This document shows positions 2,700-48,648 of a DNA stretch of 64,000 nucleotides, one piece after another (positions within the stretch are counted from its first letter, which is position 1; each line of letters starts with the position of its first letter). This stretch comes from Candidatus Omnitrophota bacterium (GTDB lineage: Bacteria > Omnitrophota > Gorgyraeia > Gygaellales > Profunditerraquicolaceae), in the NCBI GenBank assembly GCA_050012075.1, contig JBEKHW010000001.1:4766-68765 (forward strand). The letters run 5' to 3'. The translations under genes and the position numbers were made by a program. The notes beneath the pieces are model-generated. The model saw nothing but the letters and a program-made list of their open reading frames with translations. It was not told the origin of the DNA and searched no databases.

Positions 2700-3176
2700 T
2701 TATTCCGAAATGAGATTCTCAAACGCTTTTTCAGAGAAATAATTCTCTTTTTCGACGATGTTGCCTTTTTTATCGATAAATATGTAGGTGGGGACACCGA
2801 AGATACCGAAAGAATCAGAGACTGTTCCGTCTTTATCAAGCAGGACCTTGAAAGTCAACCCCTTTTTTCTGACTAAATTTTCCACCCTGCGCTTGTCTTC
2901 TCCTATATTAATTGCCAAAAACTCTAAGCCTCTACCGGCAAAACCAGCGTATTTATCTTTAAGGATAACCAGTTCCCGCTGGCAGTACGGGCACCACGTA
3001 GTCCAGAAAAACAGTACAACGGGCTTATTGCCCTTATATTCGCTTAAACTGACCGTATTCTGATTTAAATCCTGTAACGTAAAATCTTGCGCCTTATTAT
3101 CCTGCGCCTGTATACAGGATATCCCTGCTAGTGAAACGAACGTTATTGTAAATATGGCCGCGAGGTATTTTTTCAT
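2700..3176 (-). CDS. TlpA/ResA-like thiol-disulfide oxidoreductase (thioredoxin fold), secreted
   Basis: WCPYCQ active-site motif. Signal peptide MKKYLAAIFTITFVSLAGISC. Start moved to ATG at 3174-3176, which has an AAGGAG RBS; the ORF track start at 3266 would overlap ccdA. Confidence 0.8.
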   Translation of the reverse strand: MKKYLAAIFTITFVSLAGISCIQAQDNKAQDFTLQDLNQNTVSLSEYKGNKPVVLFFWTTWCPYCQRELVILKDKYAGFAGRGLEFLAINIGEDKRRVENLVRKKGLTFKVLLDKDGTVSDSFGIFGVPTYIFIDKKGNIVEKENYFSEKAFENLISE

Positions 3177-3178
3177 TC

Positions 3179-3847
3179 TTATAATCTCCTTATCCCGGAA
3201 TAAATAAAATATGCCCCTGCCGCTATCATTATGGCAGCACATAACCTTTTTATATATATAAGCCATTTACCGGATTTAGGCATATTGGCCAATAATCCGC
3301 TGAAAGTGCCGGTAAGGATCAAAACCAGCCCCATACCATAGGCGAAACTGAATAAAATAAGCGCGCCGTACAGAAAATTCTTCTTCGTGGCAAGGTATGC
3401 CAGGATTGAAGCCAGCGCCGGGCTAAGGCAGGGAGAGACGATTAAGCCCGAAGCAATACCCATGATAAACGCGGAAAAATAATTTTTCTTCGTTATCTTG
3501 GGGGCTTTTATTATATTGCCTAGCGGCAGCATGAATATATCCATCATAAAAAACGCAAAAACAATGGTGAGAGCACCCAATATAATGTAAGTCAGCGGGT
3601 GCGAGCTTATCATGCCAAAAAGAGTCCCGGTTAAAACCGCGATTATACCTAATATTGAATAGGTAACCGCCATACCGGTAACATAGAATAAACTTAAACC
3701 CAACCCCTTAAGTTTCGACCCGCCGGCAGAGGCACCTATGTAGCCGACAGTAACCGGGATAAGGGGATACACGCATGGCGTAAAACTTACCGCGATACCC
3801 CAGAAGAAAGCAAGAATGAAATCTAAAGGGCTACCTGATAGATTCAT
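3179..3847 (-). CDS. ccdA: cytochrome c-type biogenesis protein CcdA (DsbD transmembrane domain)
   Basis: Polytopic membrane protein with a conserved CVYPLIP Cys motif. Adjacent to the TlpA-like partner. Confidence 0.85.
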   Translation of the reverse strand: MNLSGSPLDFILAFFWGIAVSFTPCVYPLIPVTVGYIGASAGGSKLKGLGLSLFYVTGMAVTYSILGIIAVLTGTLFGMISSHPLTYIILGALTIVFAFFMMDIFMLPLGNIIKAPKITKKNYFSAFIMGIASGLIVSPCLSPALASILAYLATKKNFLYGALILFSFAYGMGLVLILTGTFSGLLANMPKSGKWLIYIKRLCAAIMIAAGAYFIYSGIRRL

Positions 3848-4619: not shown

Positions 4620-4644
4620 TAGACACCCTCCTTCAATGAGCACT

Positions 4645-4949
4645 TGACTTACGAACACGCCAGTGTGAGTAAGTCAATGTGCGAATTGAACCCCACACCC
4701 AGCTTTATTTTAAAGATCCTACTAATCTTAATTTTAAAGCCGTAAGAGCTTGTGCATAGTGTTTGAGACGCCGCTCTCTGTTTCTTGCATCTGACTCGGA
4801 TTTATAGGCCTCATAATAAATTAGTTCGTGCGGTTGTATTTTAAGGTGCTCTTTTAAGCGCCGCTCTAAGTTATTGGTATAACCATAATATAGTTTGTCT
4901 GTTTCCGTGTTTTTTATAACGTATAAATAATGCATAGCTGGGTGTGGGG
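4645..4949. mobile_element. composite hairpin element copy 1 carrying a GIY-YIG gene. Layout: hairpin A (4645-4677), conserved linker TGTGCGAATTGAACC (4678-4690), 13-bp IR-L CCCCACACCCAGC (4691-4703), gene, IR-R GCTGGGTGTGGGG (4937-4949)
   Basis: Perfect 13-bp inverted repeat flanks the ORF exactly: stop 1 bp after IR-L, ATG 2 bp before IR-R. Gene-less copies with the same hairpin A plus linker are at 37863-37960 and 44577-44635. Confidence 0.45.
4705..4935 (-). CDS. GIY-YIG nuclease family protein (YhbQ/UPF0213-like, 76 aa)
   Basis: YVIKNTETDKLYYGYTNNLERRLKEH carries GIY...YYG plus the catalytic R and E. Start set at ATG 4933-4935 so the domain starts at residue 3 as in YhbQ; the ORF track starts 22 codons earlier. 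Confidence 0.7.
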   Translation of the reverse strand: MHYLYVIKNTETDKLYYGYTNNLERRLKEHLKIQPHELIYYEAYKSESDARNRERRLKHYAQALTALKLRLVGSLK

Positions 4950-4975
4950 TAAATTCAGCCACAAACTTATGTTCA

Positions 4976-5227
4976 CTACGTTCCATAAGTTTGGGCTTCA
5001 TTTACCCTTACTGACTTTATCCTCCCGAATTGGCTGCAAATATCGAATATCCCCTCCGGCTCCTCGGCAATCATGCTTATTGCAAACTCCCTGCCTTTAC
5101 CTGCCTCCTGCATAGGAGTATCATTGACCTCCAGATTCTCCCCGAATTCAGAAAGAGAGCTCTTAATAAGCTCGCCTGTTGTATTATAGGCGTGTAATAT
5201 GAATTCAATCCGGTATTTTTGCATCAC
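4976..5227 (-). CDS. hypothetical small protein (83 aa)
   Basis: ORF overlapping the pgeF stop by 4 bp (ATGA), suggesting translational coupling. No motif recognised. Confidence 0.4.
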   Translation of the reverse strand: MMQKYRIEFILHAYNTTGELIKSSLSEFGENLEVNDTPMQEAGKGREFAISMIAEEPEGIFDICSQFGRIKSVRVNEAQTYGT

Positions 5228-8222: not shown

Positions 8223-8303
8223 CCCTGTCTCCTAGCCCACAAGGGCACGCCGGCGCATCCGATAGCGCCGGGCGTTAGCCCAATAATTATACCATACTCT
8301 CTT

Positions 8304-8384
8304 AGCGGGTGGCTGCCGAGACGAAGGCCTTGCCGCGCGCAACGCAGTGAGCACGGCGAGGTGGCTCGGCAGACAGGACCCGCT
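8304..8384. repeat. structured ~81-bp repeat, short form U1 (AGCGGGTGGCTGCCGAG...CTCGGCAGACAGGACCCGCT long hairpin)
   Basis: About 90% identical to 8716-8797. Its termini match the ends of the ~200-bp elements at 14494-14690 and 46737-46931. Lies between the promoter-like hairpin and the PilZ start codon, i.e. in the 5' leader. Confidence 0.6.
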
Positions 8385-8437
8385 AACTAATTATACCGCC
8401 CGAAATAAAAAATACCAGGCACATTTTCCGCGCCTGG

Positions 8438-8683
8438 TTATCTTCTGGTTATCTGGAGATTTACTGTAATTGATATCATAAAAGAGATAAAAAGCACGAA
8501 TATATAAAAAATAAATAATTGCACTAAGAAATCTTTGGCTGTTATTTTCTTTACACCGGGTAAAAGTTTTATATAGGCATTCCCGATCAAAGTCCACACT
8601 ATTGTTCCAAATAGACAAAAAATAAACAGTATTATAGCTAATATTAAACGCTTTGATAAAAATGCCATTTGCTTAACAGGCAC
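8438..8683 (-). CDS. small membrane protein (81 aa, 2 TM)
   Basis: Hydrophobic ORF bracketed by the U1 and U2 repeats. Confidence 0.4.
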   Translation of the reverse strand: MPVKQMAFLSKRLILAIILFIFCLFGTIVWTLIGNAYIKLLPGVKKITAKDFLVQLFIFYIFVLFISFMISITVNLQITRR

Positions 8684-8715
8684 CGGAGATTACCTTATAA
8701 CTGCCTAACTCTCTT

Positions 8716-8797
8716 AGCGGGTGGCTGCGGAGCCGAGGCCCCTGCCGCGCGCAACGCCAGTGAGCACGGCGGGGTGGCGCAGCAGACAAGACCCGCG
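8716..8797. repeat. structured ~82-bp repeat, short form U2
   Basis: Near-identical copy of 8304-8384, with compensatory changes in the stem (CCGAG/CTCGG becomes CGGAG/... GCGCAG). Confidence 0.6.
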
Positions 8798-8895
8798 AAT
8801 TAATTATACCACCCAAAATAAGAAAACCCAGGCACATTTTCCGTGCCTGGGCTCCTCTCGCCCCCTGCCCTATGGGAACGTCTCCGTATTTTCTT

Positions 8896-9375
8896 TTATA
8901 GTGGATCCTGCGCCTTATTCAAAATCGAATCAATCTCCCGAGTATCATTTCGAGCCCGCTCCTCTTCCCGCGCCTGCTTATGGAGCTGCTGTAGTTGCCA
9001 TTCTCCTTGCTGCCGCACTTGCTTATGGAACTGCTGTATTTGCCATTCTTCTTCCTGCCGCGCCTGCTTTAAGTTTGCCTTTGGATTTTCTTTTTGTTTC
9101 GCTTCAGATTGTCCTTCTCTTAACGGGAGCTGTTCTTGTCGTATATGAACCTGGGGTTTAATCTGTGGCGGAAATATTACCAAAACGGCGATAATTAAGA
9201 TACCGATAATTAAACCATATATTAAATCTTTTTTAATACTGCGGCTTATAGGTAATACCAATGGCCTATGGCAATAATCGCACACTACCGCGGTATCCAA
9301 AACCATTCTTGCACAATAAGGACATTTTTTCACCGCTTGCTTCGGGTAAACAACTCTTAATGGTTTTTTATCCAT
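8896..9375 (-). CDS. zinc-ribbon/TM protein with Gln-rich imperfect repeats
   Basis: N-terminal CPYC...CDYC zinc ribbon, one TM helix, then repeated EEEWQIQQFHKQVRQQGEWQLQQLHKQ. The DNA carries ~45-bp tandem repeats at 8950-9060. Confidence 0.45.
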   Translation of the reverse strand: MDKKPLRVVYPKQAVKKCPYCARMVLDTAVVCDYCHRPLVLPISRSIKKDLIYGLIIGILIIAVLVIFPPQIKPQVHIRQEQLPLREGQSEAKQKENPKANLKQARQEEEWQIQQFHKQVRQQGEWQLQQLHKQAREEERARNDTREIDSILNKAQDPL

Positions 9376-9398
9376 AGTATTCTGTGTGCATTATGAGG

Positions 9399-9440
9399 TG
9401 CTATTTATCTAAAGGGTGGTACCCCGGGGAACGTTCCCTT
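9399..9440. repeat. short form of the intergenic module: CATAG-loop terminator remnant plus GGGAACGTTCCC palindrome
   Basis: TGCTATTTATCTAAAGGGTGGTACCCCGGGGAACGTTCCC is shared with 10140-10165, 11125-11150 and 13125-13160. Confidence 0.55.
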
Positions 9441-9457
9441 ATCCCCGTCTTATATCT

Positions 9458-9796
9458 TTAGCCTTGGCTTTGCATTTTGACTGTTATTGCTTTTATAAAT
9501 TTTATCCCTAGGCTACTAATTGTACTACCAACTATAACAATAAACAGCATAAACAAATAATATAAAAATACATTTACAATCTTTCTTAATTCTGGATCTA
9601 ATGTAATCTTTATTAGTGTAGGCTGACTAGCTGCATCAGAGGATGCTGAAAGGCTTAAACTCTGCATCTGAAATAGTTCAGGTGGGTTGGCTGTATTTGT
9701 AAAGACATTACACATAGAATAGAATGCAAACAATATGCAGATTAGTCCTATACAAAACATAACATAACCGAATATCTTTTCTGTATCTGAACTCAT
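9458..9796 (-). CDS. small membrane protein (112 aa)
   Basis: Start set at ATG 9794-9796 preceded by GGAAGGAGG. Two TM helices. Confidence 0.45.
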   Translation of the reverse strand: MSSDTEKIFGYVMFCIGLICILFAFYSMCNVFTNTANPPELFQMQSLSLSASSDAASQPTLIKITLDPELRKIVNVFLYYLFMLFIVIVGSTISSLGIKFIKAITVKMQSQG

Positions 9797-9914
9797 TTCT
9801 ACCTCCTTCCAACAAAAAAGCAACCCTGTATATCTGATAAGCGCTACCCCGCCACTGCAAATATTAGATATAATTATATCTTGGATAATCGATCAATTCA
9901 AGATAATCAGATAC

Positions 9915-10165
9915 TGCCCAAAATAAAGGATCCCAAGCCTTTTCCGCGCCTGGGATTAAAATTAAAGCAGCCACTGGCGTATTGCTTTAATTTTACGCCG
10001 AGCTCTGCGAGGCGAAATTAAAACAGCCACTCGATTTAGCCGTGCCTTTGGCGTTTACGGCTAAATCGCCCTTCGCTCTGCGAAGGGGGTTGCTTATGCC
10101 AAAATCACACCGAGCTATGCTCGGTGCTATTTACCTAAAGGGTGGCACCTTCGGGAACGTCCCTA
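9915..10165. repeat. intergenic module A (~250 bp): promoter/terminator hairpin, CGCCGAGCTCTGCGAGGCG, GGCTAAATCGCCCTTCGCTCTGCGAAGGGGG, CACCGAGCTATGCTCGGTG, GGGAACGTCCC
   Basis: Long blocks more than 90% identical to 12086-12345, and partly to 10856-11150, 13054-13185 and 38280-38400. Confidence 0.6.
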
Positions 10166-10180
10166 TATCTCAAGTCCCTA

Positions 10181-10831
10181 TTATTTTATACTGACATTAA
10201 TTTCATCAGAGCCGAATGACTGCCCTGATCCATCTCTTCCGCCGGCTGATATTTCTAGCTGGCTCGGAGAAGCATTGCCGGGTATAGTAAATACCAGCTC
10301 AAAAGGCGGCTCTGTATCAAGGGCTGATGCGTATGCTCCAGCGCCTATTAAAACCATAGTAACCCCTCTGTCGGCATCTACCTTGACATGCACTGTATCC
10401 CCGGGATGAAACACATCGCCTTCCCTAGGAGAAACTATCTTTACGGCAATTGTTTTATTCGGCTTTATCATGCTGTTTTCTACCTTACGTAACATGGATT
10501 TAACACGAGAAATTTCATCTATTCTTTTGGCCTGTCTCTGATTTCCCTCTTCGATGTATAATTGCTTTGCCTGCAGATAATTTTGTTCTGCTTTCTGATT
10601 GTCTCCCAAGTGCGCATAGACTTCTCCCAGTTGGAAATAGGCATCTGCATAGTTCGGCTGCAGTTCAATGGCCTTTTGGAGACTAAGAATGGCCTTCTCA
10701 TATTCACCGGATATACAATATTCATAACCTTCTTTGTAATATGTACCTGACTCGCTTGCAAATGCCGATAAAGCCAACAAACACAAAAACACGCTACACA
10801 CTAATACCGACCCTATTCCAATCTTCTTCAT
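10181..10831 (-). CDS. secreted TPR-repeat protein
   Basis: Signal peptide, two or three TPR units (AILSLQKAIELQPNYADAYFQLGEVY), then a beta-rich C-terminal domain. Confidence 0.55.
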   Translation of the reverse strand: MKKIGIGSVLVCSVFLCLLALSAFASESGTYYKEGYEYCISGEYEKAILSLQKAIELQPNYADAYFQLGEVYAHLGDNQKAEQNYLQAKQLYIEEGNQRQAKRIDEISRVKSMLRKVENSMIKPNKTIAVKIVSPREGDVFHPGDTVHVKVDADRGVTMVLIGAGAYASALDTEPPFELVFTIPGNASPSQLEISAGGRDGSGQSFGSDEINVSIK

Positions 10832-10854
10832 TCTTCCTCCTTATCTATATTAAG

Positions 10855-10883
10855 ATTATACCGCCCAAAATAAAAAATCCCAA
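10855..10883 (-). promoter_or_regulatory. sigma70-like promoter TTGGGA-17 nt-TATAAT, embedded in a hairpin that doubles as a terminator-like structure
   Basis: Minus strand reads CTTGGGATTTTTTATTTTGGGCGGTATAAT, followed 18 nt later by AAGGAGG and the ATG of the 10181-10831 gene. The same box recurs upstream of the genes at 8683, 9796 and 12014. Confidence 0.5.
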
Positions 10884-11150
10884 GCGTTTTCACGCCTGGG
10901 ACCGTCTTGCAACTACCTGCTTTATAAAGAGTTGATTTCGGCGTGCCCCCTGCGTTTTGATTTTGGCATACCTCTCGATTTAGCCGTGCCTTTGGCGTTT
11001 ACGGCTAAATCGCCCTTCGCTCTGCGAAGGGGGTTGTTTATACCAAAAACATCCTTCACGGTGTGAAGGATATGGCGTAAACGCCGAAATCACACCGAGC
11101 TATGCTCGGTGCTATTTATCTAAAGGGTGGTACCCTGGGGAACGTCCCCT
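10856..11150. repeat. intergenic module B (~295 bp)
   Basis: Shares the promoter hairpin, CGTCTTGCAACTA box, GGCTAAATCGCCCTTCGCTCTGCGAAGGGGG, CACCGAGCTATGCTCGGTG and GGGGAACGTCCCC blocks with modules A, C and D. Confidence 0.6.
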
Positions 11151-11162
11151 ATATTCATCCCC

Positions 11163-11561
11163 CTATCTTTTCGAAAAGTCATGTTTCATAATAAAGACTA
11201 TAATTACCCCAGTTGCGATAAACACCAATATGAGGAATAACGGAATCCTACTGAAGCTCTCAGCTATCGGATAGGGAAGCAACGGGTCGATCATTATTAT
11301 TGATAGAAGGCTATATATAATCGCCGGTATCTTGGCTTGACCCTTCAAAATAAGGATAAGCGCAAGAATTAAGCATATTATAGCGGGGATAACAATCAAT
11401 AAAGGCAGAAATCCTCCTAAAAGATTCCAGCCTCCGTGACGATTAGTCTCAACAATTGAAAAAACGATAACAAGAAATGCTAAACACTGCAATATAAAGA
11501 GAGCTGTAGCAGCAATAAATAGACCACTATATTTTTTGTGCTGATTTCCTGCCATATGCAA
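11163..11561 (-). CDS. small membrane protein (132 aa, 3-4 TM)
   Basis: Hydrophobic ORF. 25-bp spacer to the next gene contains AGGGAACGTTCCCC. Confidence 0.45.
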   Translation of the reverse strand: MHMAGNQHKKYSGLFIAATALFILQCLAFLVIVFSIVETNRHGGWNLLGGFLPLLIVIPAIICLILALILILKGQAKIPAIIYSLLSIIMIDPLLPYPIAESFSRIPLFLILVFIATGVIIVFIMKHDFSKR

Positions 11562-11585
11562 ACCTTCGATCGATGCGATCCGCTC

Positions 11586-12014
11586 CTAGGGAACGTTCCC
11601 CATTCTTCCAAATTGTTCCCTTATCTCTGAGCGGGTAAGATAGTAAATCTCCCAAATAAAATAAATGATACCTACAGATAAAACGATATATCTACCTAAG
11701 TAATATAATATTTTATCTGGATAACTTTTCAAGGTCACTACAAAGACTATCCCCAAAACCAATATTCCAAATATTGCAAAAATGATATTTTCTTTTCTTG
11801 CCTTAATCCTCAATTTAAAGGTAAAAAATCCTAATTGTATAAAATAAGCGGCAAACAGTAAATAGGGAATTATTACGAACGCTAATGCCAATAAAGAAAA
11901 AATCCAATGGGGATTCTTAATTATGGCCTGGAATACAAGACCTATTAGAAAAATACCCATAAAAAAATTGATGCCAATGATTAGGTTAATTCCCGCTGGC
12001 CTTTTATTCCCCAT
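11586..12014 (-). CDS. small membrane protein (~142 aa)
   Basis: Start moved to ATG 12012-12014 (MGNKRPAG...), which sits behind GGAGGAGGG and the conserved TTGGGA-17-TATAAT box. The longer ORF-track start would read through the promoter. Confidence 0.45.
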   Translation of the reverse strand: MGNKRPAGINLIIGINFFMGIFLIGLVFQAIIKNPHWIFSLLALAFVIIPYLLFAAYFIQLGFFTFKLRIKARKENIIFAIFGILVLGIVFVVTLKSYPDKILYYLGRYIVLSVGIIYFIWEIYYLTRSEIREQFGRMGNVP

Positions 12015-12085
12015 CCCTCCTCCTTGTCCACGTGGACAACACCCGCGCAATACCGATAAGCGCGGAGTGCTAGTCCACATTGTAA

Positions 12086-12345
12086 TTATACCGCCCATAA
12101 CAAAAAATCCCAAGCCTTTTCCGCGCCTGGGATTAAAATTAAAGCAGCCACTGGCGTATTGCTTTAATTTTACGCCGAGCTCTGCGAGGCGAAATTAAAG
12201 CAGCCTCTCGATTTAGCTGTGCCTTTGGCGTTTACGGCTAAATCGCCCTTCGCTCTGCGAAGGGGGTTGCTTATGCCGAAATCACACCGAGCTATGCTCG
12301 GTGCTATTTATCTAAAGTGTAGCATCCTCGATAACGCCCCCTATT
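12086..12345. repeat. intergenic module C (~260 bp)
   Basis: Near-identical to module A over about 230 bp. Confidence 0.6.
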
Positions 12346-12375
12346 TTCGAGGCGAAACAATAGCCGCCTCTCTTT

Positions 12376-12429
12376 GAGGTGACATTTTGGCACCTCTAGC
12401 GCCCAAACTTGAAGTCACAATTTGTGATT
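12376..12429. promoter_or_regulatory. two ~25-bp palindromes TTGARGTCACAAWTTGTGAYYTCAA just 3' of the ORF6N gene; a third, perfect copy lies inside the gene at 12726-12750
   Basis: CTTGAAGTCACAATTTGTGATTTCAAG (12403-12429), TTGAGGTGACATTTTGGCACCTC (12376-12398), and TTGAGGTCACAAATTGTGACCTCAA (12726-12750, perfect). Confidence 0.4.
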
Positions 12430-12436
12430 TCAAGTT

Positions 12437-12943
12437 TTATCTTTTGGCAAAACCAATAATTCTTTTTTCCTCAGCCTTTGGTTGCTCAAGGAGTCTTTTA
12501 ATAGCTTCAAATACTGCGGCAAACTGTTTGTCATATTTATCTTCCATCTCTTCAATCTTACGCTTAAGATCTTTATGCGTTAAAAGCATGCGCCTGAAAT
12601 ATGTGAATGCGCGCATAATCTGGATATTCACCTGTATTGCTTTTGTGCTATTCAAAACACTCGAAAGCATTGCCACGCCTTGCTCCGTAAAAACATAAGG
12701 GAGATATCTTCTTCCGCCTCTTTTTGAGGTCACAAATTGTGACCTCAAAGCAGTAAACTCTCTTGCTTTTAATTGCCACATAAAATCATCTGGAAAACGT
12801 TCAGAATTTCGTTTTACTGCCTGAACAAGCGCTTTTGTTTCTACGCCATAAAGTTCTGCTAGGTCGCTATCCAACATCACCCTTTTTCCTCTTATCTGGT
12901 ATATTCTAGCCACAATTACTTCTACAGAAACTGAATTTGCCAT
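12437..12943 (-). CDS. ORF6N domain protein (KilA-N/Rha-antirepressor-like DNA-binding)
   Basis: [45 protein letters not shown] is the canonical ORF6N N-terminal domain. C-terminal coiled coil. Confidence 0.7.
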
Positions 12944-13053
12944 TTTTGAACCTCCGGCCTTAATAGACGTAAGAAGTGGTAGAATCTAACATATACCCCG
13001 GCAAGGACAACAACGCCCGATCCTATCGGATGAATCGGCGTATTGCCCTCTGC

Positions 13054-13185
13054 AATAAAAATCCCAAGCCTTTTCCGCGCCTGGGATCGTCTTGCAACTA
13101 TCTGGTCTATAAACAGTTATTTATCTAAAGGGTGGTACCTTCGGGAACGTCCCCATATTTTGCCATATTCTGGAACGTCCCTCTA
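13054..13185. repeat. intergenic module D (~130 bp, truncated; two GGAACGTCCC boxes)
   Basis: Shares the promoter hairpin, CGTCTTGCAACTATCTG and TATTTATCTAAAGGGTGGTACCTTCGGGAACGTCCCC blocks with modules A-C. Confidence 0.55.
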
Positions 13186-13275
13186 TTTCCCTGTAATCTA
13201 TCGGGGCATCCCACCAAACATCACCATTCTCAGAAAACTATTTTGAATTAAGTATCATATCCCTGAAACTCCCAT

Positions 13276-14418: not shown

Positions 14419-14493
14419 TTCCTAATCTATTCTTTTTTCTCCAATTATACCACTCCAATTCCAAAATTATACTGTGGGACATTCCCCATCTCT

Positions 14494-14690
14494 AACGGGT
14501 GGCTGCGGAGCTGAAGTCATTCGCGGGTGACGAGGCATGTTTTGAGCAGGGCGTAACGCAGGCCGAACGGGCACGGTTCACCCGCTATAAAAAAGTCAGT
14601 GAGAGTGAGGCCGAGTAGCCGAGCGTGATTTTCCACGCTGGGGAAAATCACGCGGCCCTGCGAGAAATATGCCTCGGCAGGACCCGCGAC
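14494..14690. repeat. structured ~197-bp repeat, long form L1 (inverted relative to 46737-46931)
   Basis: AACGGGTGGCTGCGGAG...CCTCGGCAGGACCCGCGACC termini. Internal perfect 11-bp stem CGTGATTTTCC/GGAAAATCACG. Reverse complement aligns over its whole length with 46737-46931. Confidence 0.65.
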
Positions 14691-18216: not shown

Positions 18217-19722
18217 CTAAAAGCTTTCTATTTTATTCAGGGCATTTACATAGGCCCTGACCGATGATTCAATGATATCCGTGCTTGAGCCGCGCGCTGT
18301 GACCACCTTGCCCTTGGCTTTTAGTTTAAGACTTACTTCGCCGAGGGCGTCTTTTCCTTTGGTTACCGCTTCAATGCGGTAATCCTGCAGCTCGCACTTT
18401 GTGCCGGTGATTTTATCAATCGCCTTAAAACAGGCATCTACCGGCCCGTCTCCGGAAGATTTAGCCGACTGCAGTTTATTCTTGTATTTTAGATGTACGA
18501 CTGCTACAGGCGTAATCTTGGTACCGGAATTAATCTCGAAACTTTCCAGCTTCCAGACCGGTTTTACTACCTTGATTTCATCTTCTACTATGGAAATCAG
18601 GTCATCGTCAAAAATATTTTTCTTTTTATCGGCCAGCTCCTTAAAACGCCCGCTGACTTTCTCAAGCTGCTCGGTGTTCAGGATAAACCCGAGTTCCTTT
18701 AACCGCTCTCCTAAGGCGTGCCTACCCGAATGTTTGCCCAGAACAAGGCCTGTCCCCACAAAACCCACATCTTCCGGCTTTATGATTTCATAGGTAGAGC
18801 GCTCTTTCAGGACCCCATCCTGATGAATACCGGATTCATGACGAAAGGCATTTCCGCCTACGATTGCCTTGTTAGGAGCAACTACAAAACCCGTGAGTTT
18901 GCTGACCAGGCGCGATACTTTATATATCTGGTTGGTAGTTATATTTGTCTGTAGGCCTTTAAATATATCCTGGCGCGTCCTGATATTCATTACAATCTCT
19001 TCCATAGAGGCATTGCCGGCTCTTTCGCCGAGACCGTTAATGGTGCATTCTACCTGGCGCGCGCCGCTTCTGATTGCTTCCAGCGAATTCGCAACAGCCA
19101 TACCCAGGTCATTATGGCAGTGGGTGGAAATTACTGCCTTACCTATATTAGGGACGTTTTCCTTAATCCCGCGGATAAGGATTCCATATTCTTCCGGCTG
19201 GGTATAACCCACTGTATCGGGGATATTGATTGTGGTTGCACCCTCATTAATCACCGCTTCTATTATCCTGTACAAAAATTCCCTTTCGCTGCGGGTAGCG
19301 TCTTCTGGAGAAAATTCCACGTCGCCACAGGATTTCCTGGCATATCTTACGCTCTCAATTGCGAGGCGCATTATTTCATCCTCTGCTTTTTTGAGCTTAT
19401 ACTGCATATGGATTTTTGAAGTAGCAAGAAACACGTGTATGCGGCCGCGTTTCGCGAATTTTACACCTTCGGCTGCCGCGTCAATATCCGCTCTAATCGC
19501 GCGAGCAAGCCCGCAGATAACCGGGCCTTTAACAGCTTTGGCAATCTGTTTTACTGATTCCAAGTCTCCTGGGCTTGAAATAGGAAACCCTGCCTCAATC
19601 ACATCCACGCCCAATTCTGCCAGGGCATGGGCAATCTCCATCTTTTCAGCAGGATTGAGGCTCGCCCCCGGCGCCTGCTCCCCGTCTCTTAGTGTCGTAT
19701 CGAATATTATTATTTTATCCAT
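18217..19722 (-). CDS. leuA: 2-isopropylmalate synthase
   Basis: IFDTTLRDGEQAPG N-terminal signature, HCHNDLGMAVAN motif, and C-terminal LeuA dimerisation domain. Confidence 0.9.
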   Translation of the reverse strand: MDKIIIFDTTLRDGEQAPGASLNPAEKMEIAHALAELGVDVIEAGFPISSPGDLESVKQIAKAVKGPVICGLARAIRADIDAAAEGVKFAKRGRIHVFLATSKIHMQYKLKKAEDEIMRLAIESVRYARKSCGDVEFSPEDATRSEREFLYRIIEAVINEGATTINIPDTVGYTQPEEYGILIRGIKENVPNIGKAVISTHCHNDLGMAVANSLEAIRSGARQVECTINGLGERAGNASMEEIVMNIRTRQDIFKGLQTNITTNQIYKVSRLVSKLTGFVVAPNKAIVGGNAFRHESGIHQDGVLKERSTYEIIKPEDVGFVGTGLVLGKHSGRHALGERLKELGFILNTEQLEKVSGRFKELADKKKNIFDDDLISIVEDEIKVVKPVWKLESFEINSGTKITPVAVVHLKYKNKLQSAKSSGDGPVDACFKAIDKITGTKCELQDYRIEAVTKGKDALGEVSLKLKAKGKVVTARGSSTDIIESSVRAYVNALNKIESF

Positions 19723-19725
19723 CTT

Positions 19726-19787
19726 AGTTCATGGTTCATGGTTCATGGTTGATAGTACTATGAACTATCCACTATGAACTATGAACT
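19726..19787. repeat. heptamer hairpin R1: (GTTCATG)x3, loop, (ATGAACT)x3. Abuts the leuA ATG and is followed by TTTTTT on the + strand
   Basis: AGTTCATGGTTCATGGTTCATGG ... CTATGAACTATCCACTATGAACTATGAACT. Same family at 23265-23338, 25002-25063 and 39517-39599. Confidence 0.65.
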
Positions 19788-19826
19788 ATTTTTTCATCCA
19801 TTGTTACTTCTTCGTTGAAGGCATTA

Positions 19827-19882
19827 CTTTTCGGCAAGCCACTGGCGTTTTTGCCGAAAAGTACACCGAGCCATGCTCGGTG
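19827..19882 (-). terminator. tandem hairpins 3' of ilvC, including the CATAG-loop hairpin CACCGAGCCATGCTCGGTG
   Basis: Two GC-rich stems (CTTTTCGGCAAGCC..GGCGTTTTTGCCGAAAAG and CACCGAGCCATGCTCGGTG) immediately downstream of the ilvC stop. Confidence 0.5.
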
Positions 19883-19899
19883 CTATTACCCCTGGCCGC

Positions 19900-20895: not shown

Positions 20896-20961
20896 TTCAT
20901 TCCTCCCCTTAAAATAAGCCATGCCACTGGCGTTGATTTTGGCGTGCCTTTGGCGTAAACG

Positions 20962-20989
20962 CCAAAATCACGCCGCGCTATGCGCGGCG
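20962..20989 (-). terminator. rho-independent terminator of ilvN (CGCCGCGCATAGCGCGGCG + UGAUUUU on the mRNA)
   Basis: Perfect 7-bp GC stem with 5-nt CAUAG loop followed by a U-rich run. Same hairpin type at 32254-32272, 48630-48648, 60761-60779 and inside modules A-C. Confidence 0.6.
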
Positions 20990-21007
20990 CTAGTCCACTG
21001 TTTTTAC

Positions 21008-21585: not shown

Positions 21586-23250
21586 TTACGCGAGGTTACT
21601 AATCATCTGGTTTATCGCTTCTCCGGCGGGAACCATCGGGAAAACATTCTCCTCCGGCTCAACGCGGAAATCGATAAACACGGTATTATCTATCTTGATC
21701 GCCTTTTCAATAGCGGGCCGCACTTCCTCTTTTTTTGTGACGTGTATGCCGACTGCGCCATAGCTATCCGCAAGCTTCACATAATCGGGGCCGGTTATGC
21801 AGACATGCGAATAGCGCCTCTTGTAAAAAAGCTCCTGCCACTGCCGCACCATCCCGAGATATCCGTTGTTAAGGATTGCTACTTTAACGTTTATTTTATT
21901 GCAAACGCAGGTGGCTAATTCCTGTATATTCATCTGTATTGAGCCGTCCCCTGCTATATCAAAAACTATTTTATCCGGGCAGCCGACTTTAGCGCCCATT
22001 GCCGCCGGAAAACCAAACCCCATTGTGCCTAATCCGCCTGATGAAATAAAGGTGCGCGGTTTAGTATATTTATACCACTGGGCAGCCCACATCTGGTTTT
22101 GCCCGACCTCTGTCGTGATAATCGCCTCACCCTTTGTGGCTTCGTCAATCTGCTCGATAACATACTGCGGCTTGATCATTTCGCCTTCTTTATAAGCCAG
22201 GGGATGTTTTTTCTTCCATTCATCCACCATCGTAAGCCAGACGGTAGTATCCGGGATTTCTTTTATCTCTCCGAGCAGTTCCCCTAAAACATTCTTGGCG
22301 TCTCCCACAATGGGTATATCAACCCTCACGTTCTTGCTGATTGAGGAAGGGTCAATATCTATATGGACGACTTTTGCGTAAGGCGCAAAGGCGTCAAGCC
22401 TGCCGGTTACGCGGTCATCAAAACGCGCGCCTATGGCAAGGATAAGGTCTGAACTCATAATCGCATGGTTAGCATAACCTGTCCCGTGCATACCAAGCAT
22501 CCCTAACGCAAGCGGGTGTGTCGCCGGAAAACCGCCTATACCCATTAGCGTCCAGGTTACCGGGGCATTTATCTTCTCTGCCAGCGCCCTTAATTCCTTG
22601 CTGCAGCCGGAAGTTATGATACCGCCACCTATGTAGAGCACCGGTTTCTTTGCCTGGGCAATTAATTTGGCTGTTTTCTTGATCTGCCCGGGATGGCCGA
22701 AAAATGTGGGCTTGTAACTGCGGATATCCACTTTTTCCGGCCAGACAAAATCCGTATCCTTTAATTGCACATCAGACGGGATATCTATAAGCACAGGTCC
22801 AGGCCTACCTGTCGAGGCAATATAAAATGCCTCGCGCACAACCCTAGCCAGCTCACTTACGTCTTTGACAAGGTAATTATGCTTGGTTATGGGACGAGTG
22901 ATTCCGGTAACATCTGCTTCCTGAAAAGCATCATTGCCGATTAAGAAACTTTTTACCTGCCCTGTAATGGCAACCATCGGTATTGAATCCATATAGGCAT
23001 TGGCTATGCCGGTAGTCAGATTCGTAGCACCAGGGCCTGAAGTAGCAAGACAAACCCCTACCTTTCCGGTTGCGCGAGCATATCCGTCGGCAGCATGGGC
23101 TGCGCCCTGTTCATGCCTCACAAGGATAAACTTTAAATCAGAATCATAAAGCTTATCGAATATGGGCAGCACCTGTCCGCCCGGATAGCCGAATATGACT
23201 TCCACGCCTTCGCGTTTTAAGGACTCTATTAATATCTGTGCGCCTGTCAT
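21586..23250 (-). CDS. ilvB: acetolactate synthase large subunit
   Basis: ThDP-binding GDG...N motif and FAD-domain motifs. 554 aa. Confidence 0.9.
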   Translation of the reverse strand: MTGAQILIESLKREGVEVIFGYPGGQVLPIFDKLYDSDLKFILVRHEQGAAHAADGYARATGKVGVCLATSGPGATNLTTGIANAYMDSIPMVAITGQVKSFLIGNDAFQEADVTGITRPITKHNYLVKDVSELARVVREAFYIASTGRPGPVLIDIPSDVQLKDTDFVWPEKVDIRSYKPTFFGHPGQIKKTAKLIAQAKKPVLYIGGGIITSGCSKELRALAEKINAPVTWTLMGIGGFPATHPLALGMLGMHGTGYANHAIMSSDLILAIGARFDDRVTGRLDAFAPYAKVVHIDIDPSSISKNVRVDIPIVGDAKNVLGELLGEIKEIPDTTVWLTMVDEWKKKHPLAYKEGEMIKPQYVIEQIDEATKGEAIITTEVGQNQMWAAQWYKYTKPRTFISSGGLGTMGFGFPAAMGAKVGCPDKIVFDIAGDGSIQMNIQELATCVCNKINVKVAILNNGYLGMVRQWQELFYKRRYSHVCITGPDYVKLADSYGAVGIHVTKKEEVRPAIEKAIKIDNTVFIDFRVEPEENVFPMVPAGEAINQMISNLA

Positions 23251-23264
23251 GTTTTTTAGTTATT

Positions 23265-23338
23265 GGTTCATGGTTCATTGTTCATGGTGTAAAGCTCTAA
23301 ACCATGAACTATCCACTATGAACTATGAACTAAGTATA
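23265..23338. repeat. heptamer hairpin R2 (GTTCATG family) between ilvD and ilvB; contains the ilvD stop codon
   Basis: GGTTCATGGTTCATTGTTCATGG...CCATGAACTATCCACTATGAACTATGAACTAAGT. The ilvD TAG stop is the CTA at 23323-23325 in the right arm. Confidence 0.65.
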
Positions 23339-24978: not shown

Positions 24979-25001
24979 ATGCTTCTCCCTTCGGTCGAAG
25001 T

Positions 25002-25063
25002 AGTTCATTGTTCATGGTTCATAGTTGTCCTACTATGAACCATCCACTATGAACTATGAACTA
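25002..25063. repeat. heptamer hairpin R3 (GTTCATG family) between the aldolase-like gene and ilvD; contains the upstream stop codon
   Basis: AGTTCATTGTTCATGGTTCATAG..CTATGAACCATCCACTATGAACTATGAACTAATC. The stop of the 25061 gene is the CTA at 25061-25063. Confidence 0.65.
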
Positions 25064-26386
25064 ATCTGCGCCTTCTCCGTCGTGCACAACTTCTTTACCT
25101 TCTTTACGTTTACGCACAATAACGCGCTTGAGAAGAATATTCTTATCAATGAGGTCACGGTTATTGATATTGCTTAGCTGCTTAAACAGGAAATCAAATT
25201 TATTTTCTATTTCGGCGGCAATCGCCTCCCGCACCTCTTTCGATAAACCCATGATTTCTTTCTTAAAAGGACCTAACGCTTTTTTGCGCGCCTTATACAA
25301 AAACTGGTCTTCGGTTTCCCCTTCTTTTTTCTCGGAAGCGGCGTTTACCTTAAGCCATTCATAGATCCTGTTTTTTAGGTCTGCAGGAAAATGCTTACTC
25401 TCATAAATCATATTCTGGAACTCTGTAGCCAGGTGCACCTCTGCGCAGTCGCATTCCGCGAATTTATGGAATGCCTCTGCGGGCAAGGTAGAAGCGCCAT
25501 GCTGTACCGCGCCTGAAAGCCCGTATTCCTTACGCGCGATCTCCGAAAGTGCCTTTAGAGTATTAAAATCCAGCTTAACCTGGGCGATGGAACCGTCAGG
25601 AAGGACGACCCCGCCGTGCGAAGTGCCTGTCTGCACGGAAATTTTACTTATGCCGATTAACCCTTTCCTTAATCTTTCTTTGTATCCGGCCATAAAAGCA
25701 CGCAGCTCTTCGGCAGTAGAATTCGCGTGGCCTACTTCACCTATTTCTCCTCCTACGGAAACCGTTACCCCGCGCGGCTCGACACGCCTGATAAACTGTG
25801 TAAGTTTTGCGCAGGCCTCATAATTATTCCTTTGTTGCTTTTTTACGTCGGGTTTGGATAAATCCACGAGCGTAGAAGAATCAATATCAATATTGTAAAA
25901 CCCGGCTGAAATCGCATCCGCAATCAAATCCTGCAATCCTTGCAGTTCTTTCTCCGGATTCTCCTGATACTTCTTGGCATTGACCTGGGTGTGGTCTGCC
26001 TGGATAAAAACAGGGCCCTGCCAATCTTCTTTTATCGCGGCTGCCAATATAACCGCAGAGTATTCAATAGGCGGCTGGGCAGTATAACCCATCTCTGATT
26101 TTGCAATCTCAAAGATAAATGCGCCGGAATTATTACGCTTGGCAACCTTAAAGAGAGCGCGCGCAAGGTCATAGGTCATACTTCTTAAATTGATTGCCGG
26201 GACTGTAAAGCCGCTGAATTCTCCCCTGCCGCGCGCCATATAAAAATCATGAATACTGGAAGGATAAATACCTTTTTTATAAGCTATCTCGCTTATCTTC
26301 TTGGCCAGCTTTTTCTTAAGCGGCATATCGTCACTCATTATCAGCTCAAAAACAATCTTCTCGATGTCCAAAGGATTCCTTCCCAT
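25061..26386 (-). CDS. class II (metal-dependent) fructose/tagatose-bisphosphate aldolase family protein, long form
   Basis: About 440 aa with IQADHT and GTSHGG boxes, which resemble the class II aldolase DH and GxxHG metal/phosphate motifs. Sits next to pfkA. Family assignment is tentative. Confidence 0.5.
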   Translation of the reverse strand: MGRNPLDIEKIVFELIMSDDMPLKKKLAKKISEIAYKKGIYPSSIHDFYMARGRGEFSGFTVPAINLRSMTYDLARALFKVAKRNNSGAFIFEIAKSEMGYTAQPPIEYSAVILAAAIKEDWQGPVFIQADHTQVNAKKYQENPEKELQGLQDLIADAISAGFYNIDIDSSTLVDLSKPDVKKQQRNNYEACAKLTQFIRRVEPRGVTVSVGGEIGEVGHANSTAEELRAFMAGYKERLRKGLIGISKISVQTGTSHGGVVLPDGSIAQVKLDFNTLKALSEIARKEYGLSGAVQHGASTLPAEAFHKFAECDCAEVHLATEFQNMIYESKHFPADLKNRIYEWLKVNAASEKKEGETEDQFLYKARKKALGPFKKEIMGLSKEVREAIAAEIENKFDFLFKQLSNINNRDLIDKNILLKRVIVRKRKEGKEVVHDGEGAD

Positions 26387-29585: not shown

Positions 29586-29682
29586 ATAGCCTCCTTAAAT
29601 GAACAGACAACTTATGGAGCGCCACAGGCGCGACATAAGTTGTAGCGTCTCTCATTTTACTTATCTATCAGCGTCTGCGAAG

Positions 29683-37838: not shown

Positions 37839-37862
37839 AATACGCTCCTTTTAATGAGCACT

Positions 37863-37960
37863 AAACTTACGATCCGCCGTAGGCGGAGAGTAAGTTTATG
37901 TGCGAATTAATCCCACACCCAGCCAGTAAGCTTACATAGCTATAGTTTTCTGGGTGTGGG
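37863..37960. repeat. composite hairpin element copy 2 (gene-less). Hairpin A AAACTTACG..CGTAAGTTT-like, linker TGTGCGAATTAATCC, then CCCACACCCAG-27 nt-CTGGGTGTGGG hairpin
   Basis: Collinear with 4645-4703 plus 4937-4949 but with a 27-nt loop in place of the GIY-YIG gene. Confidence 0.55.
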
Positions 37961-38182
37961 ATACCCGATTACGATTTAAAAAGAACAGTCCCCTGCCTTC
38001 AATTTTTGTTTGCCCATACAACTTACGTTCGCTTCGTTCCGTAAGTATCTTGTACCTCGCTTAAACACTTGTACTTTTCTTTGAAAAGTACTACGTAAGC
38101 TCGGTATAAATTCGCAGACGGCCTTCGGCCTACGGCTTACGTTCGCTCAGCCTGTTCGCTCCGTAAGCCGTCTGCTCATTTA

Positions 38183-38255
38183 AGCGGGAGACGGGATTCG
38201 AACCCGCGACATTAACCTTGGCAAGGTTACGCTCTACCAACTGAGCCACTCCCGC
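38183..38255 (-). tRNA. tRNA-Gly (anticodon GCC)
   Basis: Hand-folded cloverleaf: acceptor GCGGGAG, D-arm GCTCAGTTGGTAGAGC, anticodon loop TTGCCAA, T-arm GCGGGTTCGAATCCCGT. No encoded CCA. Confidence 0.8.
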
Positions 38256-38516
38256 GTTAAAATTAAAGCTCCCTTGATTTCGGCGTGCCTCTGGCGATTA
38301 CGCCGAAATCACACTTTGCTCTGCAAAGTGCTTGGCGCAATTGTTAATTTTACGCCGAGCCCTGCGAGGCGCATACATTAACTATCCTAAGCCCTGCGCG
38401 ACCAAAATAAATTCTGGAAATTCTTTCCCCACACCACTTTAAGTTTTTAGCAGCGTTCAATTAAGAAACATATTATATCCGCCTGCGGCGGATAGCTGTT
38501 AAAAACTTGTCGTTCA

Positions 38517-39452: not shown

Positions 39453-39516
39453 TAATTTTTCGATTCCGGACTCTATCCTGCGGCTATTGATTCAACAGGA
39501 TTAGAGGCCCAGATTT

Positions 39517-39599
39517 AGTTCATTGTTCATGGTTCATGGTTCATGGTTCATGGTTCATGGTTGTCCTGCTATGAACCATCCACTATGAACTATGAACTA
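39517..39599. repeat. heptamer hairpin R4 (GTTCATG family, six left-arm units) overlapping the frr stop codon
   Basis: AGTTCATTGTTCATGG(TTCATGG)x4..loop..CTATGAACCATCCACTATGAACTATGAACTAA. The frr TAG is the CTA at 39597-39599. Confidence 0.65.
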
Positions 39600-40157
39600 A
39601 AATTCAAGTATTTCTTTTTCTTTATTCTTTAAGAGCTCGTCAATCTTTGCGATATACTTATCGACAAGCTTTTGCAATTCATCTATCCCGCGAAACTTAT
39701 CGTCTTCTGAAATTGCCTTGTCTTTCTCAAGTTTCTCTAATGTTTCTTTGGAATCGCGCCGGATGGTGCGTAAAGACACCCTTCCTTCTTCCGTCATATT
39801 GTGCACCACTTTTGCCAACTCCTGGCGCCTCTCTTTTGAAAGCTGCGGGAATGACAATCGCACAACCTTGCCATCATTGGAAGGTGTAATGCCAAGATTA
39901 GATTTAAGGATAGCCTTCTCAATCTCGGGAACAGCCGAAACATCCCATGGTTGAATCATCAACAAGTGGGCATCCTGGGTAGAAATAGAGGCCAACTGTT
40001 TTAACAGGGTCGGGGCCCCATAATAATCAATATGCAGTCCTTCAACCAGATGAGGGCTTGCCCTTCCTGTGCGTATCTCGGAAAATTCACGGGTAACCGA
40101 ATCAAATGCCTTTTTCATTTTCTCTTCGGAGCTATGTAAGATTTCCTTAACTGTCAT
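39597..40157 (-). CDS. frr: ribosome recycling factor
   Basis: 186 aa. Conserved RTGRA and PQLSKERR regions. Confidence 0.9.
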   Translation of the reverse strand: MTVKEILHSSEEKMKKAFDSVTREFSEIRTGRASPHLVEGLHIDYYGAPTLLKQLASISTQDAHLLMIQPWDVSAVPEIEKAILKSNLGITPSNDGKVVRLSFPQLSKERRQELAKVVHNMTEEGRVSLRTIRRDSKETLEKLEKDKAISEDDKFRGIDELQKLVDKYIAKIDELLKNKEKEILEF

Positions 40158-44387: not shown

Positions 44388-44576
44388 AAAATAACTCTTT
44401 TCCTGGCTTTAATTGGATTTTTTAATATAACACAATAATTGCCTTTTGTCGAGCCTCCTTGTAACTTTTTTTACGGTTATATTGAACAATTTTGACAATT
44501 GGAGAGGCTGGCAAAAATAGGCAATATTTTAGTTGCAACAGGCCGGGCAATTTGCTATCATCTTTTTACGAGCACA

Positions 44577-44635
44577 TAAGTTACGGAGCAGGATGCGACG
44601 TAACTTATTTGTGCGAGTTAATCCGCCGAAGGCGG
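44577..44635. repeat. composite hairpin element copy 3 (partial). Hairpin TAAGTTACG-13 nt-CGTAACTTA, linker TTTGTGCGAGTTAATCC, small hairpin GCCGAAGGCGG
   Basis: Same hairpin-A plus TGTGCGARTTRAWCC arrangement as copies at 4645-4690 and 37863-37912. Lies 48 bp upstream of the gfo ATG. Confidence 0.5.
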
Positions 44636-44683
44636 ACAAAACAGGCAGAAAGTTGCGTTTCTGAAATTTTGCTTTCATCTGAT

Positions 44684-46736: not shown

Positions 46737-46931
46737 TCGCGGGTCCTGCCGAGGCGCGTTCTCGCAGGAACGCACGATTTTCCCCAGCGTGGAAAATCGC
46801 GCTCGGCTCCTCGGCCTCGCTCGTCCAATACAAGATTGTTTCGGGGACACCTTGCCCGCTCGGCCTGCGGACGTCCTGCTCAAATCGCGCCTCGTCACCC
46901 GCGAATGATTTCGGCTTAGCAGCCACCCGCT
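46737..46931. repeat. structured ~195-bp repeat, long form L2 (reverse-complement copy of 14494-14690)
   Basis: Starts 5 bp after the lpxB stop. Termini TCGCGGGTCCTGCCGAGG...GCAGCCACCCGCT. Confidence 0.65.
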
Positions 46932-48571: not shown

Positions 48572-48648
48572 ATTAACCTCCGCTTAGCTAGTTAAATAAA
48601 CAATACCCCTGGTGCCTATTGTTTATTTACGCCGCGCTATGCGCGGCG

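Follow-up and report, generated by a model that had tools for sequence, protein, structure and literature searches.

An oriented, hairpin-ended and apparently mobile element around a minimal Ssn-type GIY-YIG nuclease gene in Omnitrophota

The sequence analysed here (the window) is a stretch of 64,000 nt from contig JBEKHW010000001.1 of a Candidatus Omnitrophota bacterium (assembly GCA_050012075.1). Between an 83-aa gene and a flavodoxin gene it carries a unit of ≈374 bp on the minus strand (4632-5005), in which a small gene for a GIY-YIG nuclease is enclosed by the two arms of an inverted repeat (IR-B) and, outside these, by two hairpin modules (hairpin A) that face each other. In gene sense the order is left module, IR-B arm, GIY-YIG open reading frame (ORF), IR-B arm and right module. 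The modules were scored with a covariance model, R1, which was built from the hairpin module and searched across the window. The parts of the unit are as follows:

4632..5005, minus strand: whole gene-bearing element, delimited by covariance-model matches and by alignment with the empty site of a relative (locus L084)
4632..4689, minus strand: right-end (3') module, R1 62.2 bits, E=6e-14
4690..4704: IR-B arm ACCCCACACCCAGCT, abutting the stop codon (4705-4707)
4705..4935, minus strand: gene for the 76-aa GIY-YIG nuclease (Ssn-like, minimal form), Pfam PF01541 E=1.9e-11
4936..4950: IR-B arm AGCTGGGTGTGGGGT, abutting the ATG (4933-4935)
4950..5005, plus strand: left-end (5') module, an inverted hairpin-A copy, R1 69.7 bits

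The right-end module is built from the linker TTCAAT-TC-GCAC, a 9-bp stem with a tip stem, and then GTGC-TC-ATTGAA; the Shine-Dalgarno (SD) sequence GGAGG and the ATG of the flavodoxin gene (4619) come straight after it. On the far side of the nuclease gene (4937-4969 and beyond), a repeat search found the linker and hairpin A again in inverted form. The loop of this left-end module reads GGAACGTAGTGAAC on the gene-sense strand, and its outer 8 nt (AAATGAAG) are host coding sequence. An initial annotation, made from the letters alone, had described the unit as hairpin A followed by hairpin B. Both hairpins exist, but the second, inverted module across the gene (4950-5005) had been missed, and the whole is an oriented element with distinct ends. 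The inverted repeat that it placed around the 76-codon gene is perfect and does bracket it, but is 15 bp long rather than 13 (4690-4704/4936-4950) and contiguous with both the stop codon and the ATG; if the arms are taken as 13 bp, both gaps measure 1 nt, instead of 1 nt and 2 nt. Between the IR-B arm and the nuclease ATG, which is at the base of IR-B, there is no SD sequence, and this points to translation that is low or coupled; IR-B may keep the ORF poorly translated.

The GIY-YIG domain covers residues 1-59 of the protein, and the only Pfam matches were to GIY-YIG and MUG113; NCBIfam gave a sub-threshold match to a group I intron endonuclease and nothing else. The AlphaFold2 model consists of one compact domain (pLDDT 94.3), for which the best PDB matches were 1zg2 and 1ywl (UPF0213), followed by 1ln0 (I-TevI), with a Foldseek TM-score of 0.55 for UPF0213. 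There was no Ssn structure among the PDB matches. The description of the protein as YhbQ-like is imprecise, as sequence similarity to UPF0213 structures is limited to the N-terminal half: the profile match to 1zg2 (E=1e-4) spans positions 2-34 only, a PDB sequence search returned only UPF0213 and Slx1 N-terminal matches, and full-length likeness is to Ssn-type proteins. Residues Y17, G18, R26, H30 and E54 are invariant among homologues, and the GIY-YIG catalytic residues (Y, Y17/G18, R26, H30 and E54) are conserved. Neither Pfam nor the AlphaFold2 model revealed a DNA-binding domain apart from the catalytic one, such as known GIY-YIG homing enzymes possess, and the HUH-Y1 (TnpA-REP) transposase domain was absent from the nuclease gene by Pfam.

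The Ssn family (cd10448) comprises single-domain GIY-YIG enzymes of ≈94 aa that bind a hairpin repeat (NTS, generally SRM) in single-stranded DNA (ssDNA) and cut upstream of it, and that are inactive on double-stranded DNA and RNA (Chenal et al., Nat Commun 2025; PMC11893778). Their genes have repeats on both flanks (NTS-ssnA-NTS), plus hundreds of intergenic copies; the authors remark on an architecture resembling insertion sequences (IS) and RAYT/REP, propose domestication, and mobility is only hypothesised (PMC11893778). The published criteria are a BLASTP E<1e-10 and >=75% coverage against N. meningitidis SsnA with cd10448 as the top CDD match, and the SRM motif, HGTCWYN(0-2)YYVSBRHN(0-5)WNVSBRGN(0-2)RNCYNB, is found 5' and 3' of the gene (PMC11893778). 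When the SRM pattern was searched for, it gave no matches in the window (0.17 expected) and four matches flanking each of two plasmid-borne genes, from Shinella (pShin-01) and Azospirillum (AZO_p3), that had been found by tblastn. With the products of these two SRM-flanked genes as proxies, BLASTP aligned the window protein at 39% identity (E=7e-12, residues 3-60) to that of Shinella and at 33% identity (E=8e-11, residues 3-72) to that of Azospirillum, and hhalign against 20 canonical SRM-flanked Ssn proteins gave 98.5% probability (E=1.7e-15, 64 columns). By sequence comparison, the window protein is therefore most probably homologous to SRM-flanked Ssn proteins. The belief that no described family has such nuclease genes framed by repeats had to be abandoned, since Ssn ssDNA nucleases, with their dispersed hairpin repeats, are one. 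Literature searches on GIY-YIG proteins with REP or miniature inverted-repeat transposable element (MITE) sequences, or in Patescibacteria and Omnitrophota, brought up only the Ssn paper as relevant, and none of the papers searched described the variant in the window. Both phyla are uncultivated and mostly metagenome-assembled, and were presumably thinly covered by the set of reference/representative genomes behind the Ssn survey. On Azospirillum lipoferum 4B plasmid AZO_p3 (L082, 876-1384), the Ssn gene, with two SRMs per side, sits between sufB and sufC, which hints that canonical Ssn units also insert within operons.

Relatives of the flavodoxin locus share a conserved synteny (RmuC-DUF167-Cu_oxidase_4-80aa-flavodoxin-CutA1-DsbD), in which the occupancy of the junction upstream of flavodoxin could be compared. 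The closest relative (L084, flavodoxin 95% identical) has no insert at the orthologous junction, where GGTAAATGAAG runs directly into AAGGGAGTATATAATG; its 80-aa gene overlaps the flavodoxin gene, and AAGGGAG and the ATG come after the junction. Alignment with this empty site puts the limits of the insert at ≈4636-4997 (≈360 bp), with the junction ambiguous within TGAAG. The junction is likewise empty in L085, L087 and L088, and in ≈70 of 80 further metagenomic flavodoxin loci, many of which have AAATGAAGGAGG ahead of the ATG. L086 carries at the same junction a gene-less unit of left module, hairpin B and right module, the last almost identical to that of the window; L110, L155 and L168 have gene-less units with differing hairpin-B arms, and L099 has a solo left module. 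The whole unit behaves as an insertion, present or absent at orthologous sites; both there and at other sites, versions without the gene and solo end modules are seen. This bears out the proposal that a hairpin module carries a nuclease gene as cargo: the layout is module-gene-module, and it is absent from orthologous sites in relatives, which do not all carry the same arrangement. Also upstream of flavodoxin, L165 (≈1121-1191) keeps the outer frame TTAATTCG...CTCATTAAGGAGG and has its hairpin-A stem-loop swapped for a CCCCCACACCAATTAG palindrome.

Elsewhere, a gene-less unit of 214 bp lies between groES and groEL in L007 (3606-3819) and is missing from the orthologous L009. In the gene-less unit of L020 (4143-4412), an 80-nt interior matches the last 73 nt of the GIY-YIG ORF of that genome, with a score of 101 against a shuffle maximum of 31; this copy is an internal-deletion derivative. 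Gene-less inverted doublets were found in L007 (3606-3819), L004 (64-282), L020 (4143-4412), L086, L110 and L155. As in MITEs, the gene-less copies have the same termini as the gene-bearing element, and the internal deletion is seen in L020. Copies also occupy different loci within one genome: three genomes have two gene copies each, with 81-95% nucleotide identity and unrelated flanks. Together, the precise empty site, the gene-less copies at the same site, the deletion derivative and the intragenomic paralogues indicate transposon-like behaviour, with insertion and decay, for a minimal Ssn-type unit. The element is a new, apparently mobile variant of the Ssn nuclease/hairpin-repeat systems.

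A scan with one genome per species found 147 relatives, 80 of which were taken, and 78 loci were scorable. An inverted repeat framing the gene (scoring 12 or more and no further than 60 nt from its ends) was present in 64 of the 78 homologous loci (Omnitrophota, Patescibacteria and others), compared to 0 of 234 shuffled controls. The element architecture is common to most homologues across phyla. The arms are ACCCCACACCCAG in Omnitrophota and of the ACCGAGCACATAAnTT, ACCCAGCACTTATTT or CCCCACAC type in Patescibacteria and other phyla; the ACCGAGCACATAAnTT type is similar to the hairpin-A stem of copy 3 in the window (below). Compensatory double changes in IR-B occur in L012, L014, L017 (two), L019 and L020, and where IR-B has a single mismatch, it reads G-T on the sense strand. 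The gene-less L004 unit (64-282) has Omnitrophota-type hairpin-A modules around a Patescibacteria-type inner repeat (CTCAGCACTAATTT / AAATTAGTGCTGGG), which suggests modular exchange between the two repeat types. In a bacterial metagenome-assembled genome (L039, ≈2900-3330), a GIY-YIG element stands directly 5' of a tRNA gene, with GGTGAGGGGCCAGTAGC, including the tRNA 5' end, on both sides; this could be of use as a junction from which to define the insertion mechanism.

The end module was defined from an alignment of the sequences on either side (5' and 3') of the gene in 21 homologous loci of Omnitrophota. Its ≈57-nt consensus begins with TTTAAT-TC-GCRC-A, continues with a 9-10-bp stem (..ACTTAYG, loop TTCRCTTCGTTC), and closes with GYGC-TC-ATTAAA. 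Hairpin A has 19 consensus pairs, 16 of them with covariation, in which changes on both sides keep the pairing (RNAalifold); the basal pairs covary at columns 1/69, 2/68 and 4/66 of the hairpin-A alignment. Left and right modules are consistently distinct across loci (CAAATTCRGNC...TTCATTTGA versus TTAATTCGCRC...GCTCATTAAA), and the element is therefore oriented. Counts of G-U versus A-C mismatches in hairpin A gave no strand signal. An Rfam scan of the whole window matched three tRNAs only, and no known RNA family.

Besides the two end modules at 4632-4689 and 4950-5005, R1 found five further modules in the window, all of them intergenic. These, with their accompanying hairpins, are:

37850..37910, minus strand: copy 2, right-end-type module without gene, R1 54.4 bits; the SD and ATG of ptsN (EIIA-2, 37838) come next
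37912..37960: gene-less hairpin B, 13-bp arms CCCACACCCAGCC / GGCTGGGTGTGGG, 23-nt loop, dG -55 to -57 kcal/mol, z ~ -9
38021..38046, plus strand: left-end-type hairpin, incomplete, with only the stem and loop (model positions 17-42), R1 25.4 bits
38107..38183, plus strand: complete right-end-type module in opposite orientation, with an extra small hairpin insert, R1 39.9 bits
44564..44621, minus strand: copy 3, solo right-end-type module, R1 62.4 bits
44625-44637: short hairpin B' CCGCCGAAGGCGG beside copy 3 (feature 44564..44637)
29595..29657, minus strand: weak, interrupted right-end-type module, R1 19.9 bits, E=0.023, followed by TTCATTTAAGGAGG and ATG

The three copies of hairpin A and its linker that had first drawn attention to the locus are real and align beyond chance. 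The linker TGTGCGARTTRAWCC has exact matches at 4678, 37899 and 44610 and nowhere else in the window (3 versus 0.65 expected), and in each copy two adjacent hairpins fold with z = -3 to -9 relative to shuffled controls. The CCCACACCCAG arms match exactly at 4692(+)/4938(-) and at 37912(+)/37950(-). In an RNA fold of the hairpin at 37912-37960 the outermost pair of each arm is G-U, and the previously reported 27-nt loop is correct when counted from the exact 11-nt cores. The second hairpin is not limited to copies 1 and 2, as had been thought, since copy 3 also has a small hairpin B (44625-44637). Copy 3 occupies an intergenic region between divergent genes and is 177 nt upstream of a gene for an ABC transporter. 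Among the hairpins suspected of being decayed copies, those at 37980-38180 include two modules (38021-38046 at 25 bits and 38107-38183 at 40 bits), but those at 47040-47140 are unrelated to the family, with no R1 match at E<10. The loop at 38021-38046 agrees with the left-end consensus, and this hairpin is probably the decayed left end of copy 2. The module at 38107-38183, which adjoins the 3' end of tRNA-Gly (38183-38255, minus strand) and is similar to the 3' modules of L002/L003, is more likely a separate solo copy, the left remnant of copy 2 being 38021-38046; a reading of 37850-38183 as one inverted pair was dropped, since 38107-38183 is of the right-end type.

With only three copies in the window, and a genome rich in other hairpin repeats, we considered chance similarity or an assembly artefact. 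This has a negligible probability and was excluded by the R1 E-values of the modules, which run from 1e-11 to 1e-16, and by the recurrence of the same architecture in dozens of independent assemblies (64/78 loci versus 0/234 shuffles).

The conservation of the "linker" of the initial annotation would be explained by the base of the module: in the basal stem, the internal linker (GAATTTRA / TTYAAT) pairs with the outermost 5-6 nt of each module. At the flavodoxin insertion, host codons supply the left outer bases, to which the linker is matched. The linker-flank pairs are GTAAAT/ATTTAC in the window, L086 and L155, ATAAAT/ATTTAT in L168, and TCAAAT/ATTTGA in the consensus elsewhere. Such pairing suggests, to judge from the covarying bases, either a guide-like choice of target or post-insertion selection or compensatory evolution that keeps the stem. 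The left flank of insertions is conserved as AAATGARG, and right-end modules nearly always precede GGAGG and ATG; the SD at the flavodoxin site belongs to the host. Sites beside AAATGARG, immediately 5' of an SD sequence and in gene orientation, thus appear to be favoured for insertion or retention. Right-end modules would persist as solo copies because of their location in the 5' leader of the downstream gene.

This placement, combined with the strong RNA folding of the modules, raises the possibility that they are cis-regulatory 5'-leader structures of the host, acting as mRNA stabilisers or in translation control upstream of the SD, with the nuclease gene as an occasional passenger. Right-end modules do lie mostly immediately 5' of GGAGG and ATG in gene orientation, and the single IR-B mismatches (G-T on the sense strand) also favour this reading. 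However, the modules are missing from the same leader in ≈70/80 relatives and yet present before unrelated genes; the symmetric inverted left/right layout around a nuclease gene recurs across phyla; the G-U versus A-C mismatches in hairpin A have no strand bias; no Rfam family matches; and one module abuts the 3' end of a tRNA on the opposite strand. A leader function may be a partial truth, but we regard it as improbable as the whole account.

The position of the gene exactly inside the hairpin-B loop points to a different alternative, in which only the cassette of IR-B and ORF is mobile, as a free-standing homing endonuclease gene. It would home, by cleavage and recombinational repair, into the loops of hairpin-B sites already present between resident hairpin-A repeats, which would belong to the host and not to the element. 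At the same site, short-looped A'-B-A units that lack the gene do exist (L086 and L110). The right modules of the window and L086 are nearly identical and their left modules differ, suggesting partial conversion of a resident element, and in Patescibacteria the gene lies inside a palindrome like the hairpin-A stem (GAGCACATAAGTTAT), so that cargo can occupy different hairpins. Against this, the closest relative (L084) lacks the whole unit and not merely the gene, and the gene-less copy of L020 is a deletion derivative rather than a virgin site. Furthermore, the hairpin-B arms are not conserved in gene-less copies (L155 and L168), which makes them poor homing targets, and the protein has no separate DNA-binding domain such as known GIY-YIG homing enzymes have. 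Cassette homing, too, may be true in part, but we judge it unlikely to account for the locus.

We think it probable, instead, that the locus is an oriented genetic element that ends in hairpins and has a minimal Ssn-type GIY-YIG nuclease at its core, in parallel to RAYT/REPIN and NTS-ssnA-NTS, with a mechanism that we infer as follows. By homology to the characterised Ssn enzymes, the protein would bind the hairpin-A module as ssDNA, strand-specifically, and nick next to that module. The inversion of the ends means that each of the two strands offers the same hairpin at one end. The unit would then be copied or moved by repair, replication or recombination in the host; a GIY-YIG hydrolase alone cannot rejoin DNA, and spread must therefore use these host processes. 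The ≈75-bp end modules may provide homology enough for copying the gene into gene-less copies.

Several observations weigh against such an element. To our knowledge, GIY-YIG enzymes hydrolyse DNA and do not join strands, and we can propose no complete transposition chemistry. No consistent target-site duplication was found across elements, with AAG, TGAAG, AAATGAAG and GGAGG considered: TGAAG flanks both sides in the window and AAATGAAG both sides in L004, and most others have TGAAG / TAAAG. There is one gene copy and ≈6 modules in 64 kb. The gene-bearing copy upstream of groES is common to L007 and L009 at the same site, so stable inheritance can occur, and turnover may be slow and the element domesticated rather than selfish. 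The Omnitrophota and Patescibacteria proteins lack a 9-residue segment (with an invariant G-F) and the W-R-WK C-terminus of canonical Ssn, the latter replaced by a long helix in the AlphaFold2 model; on the strength of these missing conserved segments, the substrate could differ from that of Ssn. An RNA-leader role, too, would fit with modules that constantly lie 5' of an SD and in the orientation of the gene. Finally, the gene-less copies in the window have no detectable ORF remnant: similarity to the ORF was no better than shuffles for the interiors of copy 2, L007 and L086. Of the earlier suggestion of a mobile element with MITE-like derivatives, then, the empty sites, gene-less derivatives and deletion copy in L020 uphold the general claim, but not the derivation of the two gene-less window copies from the gene-bearing one.

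A bolder reading, which we put forward as a speculation with perhaps less in its favour than against it, is that these loci represent a class of prokaryotic transposable element that has so far gone unrecognised and is widespread in Omnitrophota and Patescibacteria. The sole protein of the element would be a 76-residue GIY-YIG ssDNA nuclease that recognises hairpin ends on opposite strands; a flank-linker "guide" would pick AAATGARG/SD targets as in IS200/IS605, whose enzyme is altogether different; and the element would spawn MITE-like and solo-end derivatives that become host 5' leaders. The locus bears on the role of Ssn nucleases outside Neisseria and on the mobility of the repeat-gene-repeat unit. 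It probably extends the family to uncultivated phyla with small genomes and adds a new putative cognate repeat, for which there are a covariance model and 19 supported pairs. If the protein is indeed a 76-aa nuclease that is specific for the sequence and structure of its ssDNA substrate, with a defined hairpin as its target, it would be of practical interest as a tool.

The window contains several other repeats. A second, unrelated family of paired intergenic hairpins (GATTTAGCCGTGCC..GGCTAAATC followed by GCCCTTCGCTCTGCGAAGGGG) lies at 10027-10107, 10971-11051, 12204-12284, 20935-20984 and 38270-38350, one copy being just past tRNA-Gly, beside the copy-2 region. A third family (ACACCGAGCTATGCTCGGTG / ACGCCGCGCTATGCGCGGCG) has at least eight occurrences (9989-10131, 11086-11116, 12166-12308, 19857-19887, 20964-20994 and 48623-48653). 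Long palindromes of TTCATGG / CTATGAA heptamer runs are found at four sites (19705-19790, 23247-23338, 25001-25064 and 39506-39601), one of them beside tRNA-Lys. An inverted repeat of ≈170-440 bp, 82-89% complementary, has its arms 32 kb apart (14493-14666 and 46759-46932). Three tandem units of ≈603 bp with 66-81% identity (57729-59361) are probably a tandemly triplicated gene, and repeated intergenic cassettes at 8300-13200, with a 253-nt repeat (9911/12088, 93% identical) and spacings of ≈0.9-2.2 kb, suggest a tandem array of paralogous genes with shared leaders.

Among known systems, RAYT (TnpA-REP)/REP-REPIN is similar in having a usually low-copy nuclease gene between inverted hairpin repeats, with gene-less inverted doublets and solo hairpins scattered between genes, and some copies inherited vertically (L007/L009 here). 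The enzyme differs, being a GIY-YIG hydrolase here rather than an HUH-Y1 transposase, and covalent strand transfer is therefore not expected. IS200/IS605 elements such as IS608, too, carry a subterminal hairpin at either end, recognised as ssDNA (as would be the case here), and their left and right ends differ. They encode a Y1 HUH TnpA, have no terminal inverted repeats and insert 3' of a fixed 4-5-nt target without duplicating it; the conserved left flank AAATGARG and the lack of a consistent duplication in the present element are compatible with this but not conclusive. They use flank-to-internal "guide" pairing, which the linker-flank covariation suggests here. Unlike in IS200/IS605, the ends of the present element are inverted repeats of each other and the enzyme is of a different class, and guide pairing and an ssDNA intermediate are putative.

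GIY-YIG homing endonucleases (I-TevI, Seg) share the catalytic fold and the presence or absence at orthologous sites, but here there is no DNA-binding domain or linker and no intron or phage context, the setting being a chromosomal operon, and hairpin modules at the termini, along with derivatives that lack the gene, set the element apart. UPF0213/YhbQ proteins (cd10456, with BH0048, EF2693 and YhbQ; 1zg2, 1ywl) are similar in size and give the best solved-structure matches, but are similar in sequence only in the N-terminal half, whereas similarity to Ssn-type proteins spans residues 3-72. Like Ssn, a family of single-domain GIY-YIG proteins shorter than 150 aa, the window protein has a single such domain and <100 aa, and is encoded between inverted hairpin repeats of which gene-less copies exist in intergenic DNA as well. 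It is shorter (76 aa versus ≈94-97 aa), and its repeat is different in sequence and about twice as long; the element has an extra inverted repeat (IR-B) at the start and stop codons and differentiated left and right ends, and its hosts are Omnitrophota and Patescibacteria. Whereas mobility of Ssn units was only hypothesised (PMC11893778), here it is indicated by empty sites and a deletion derivative.

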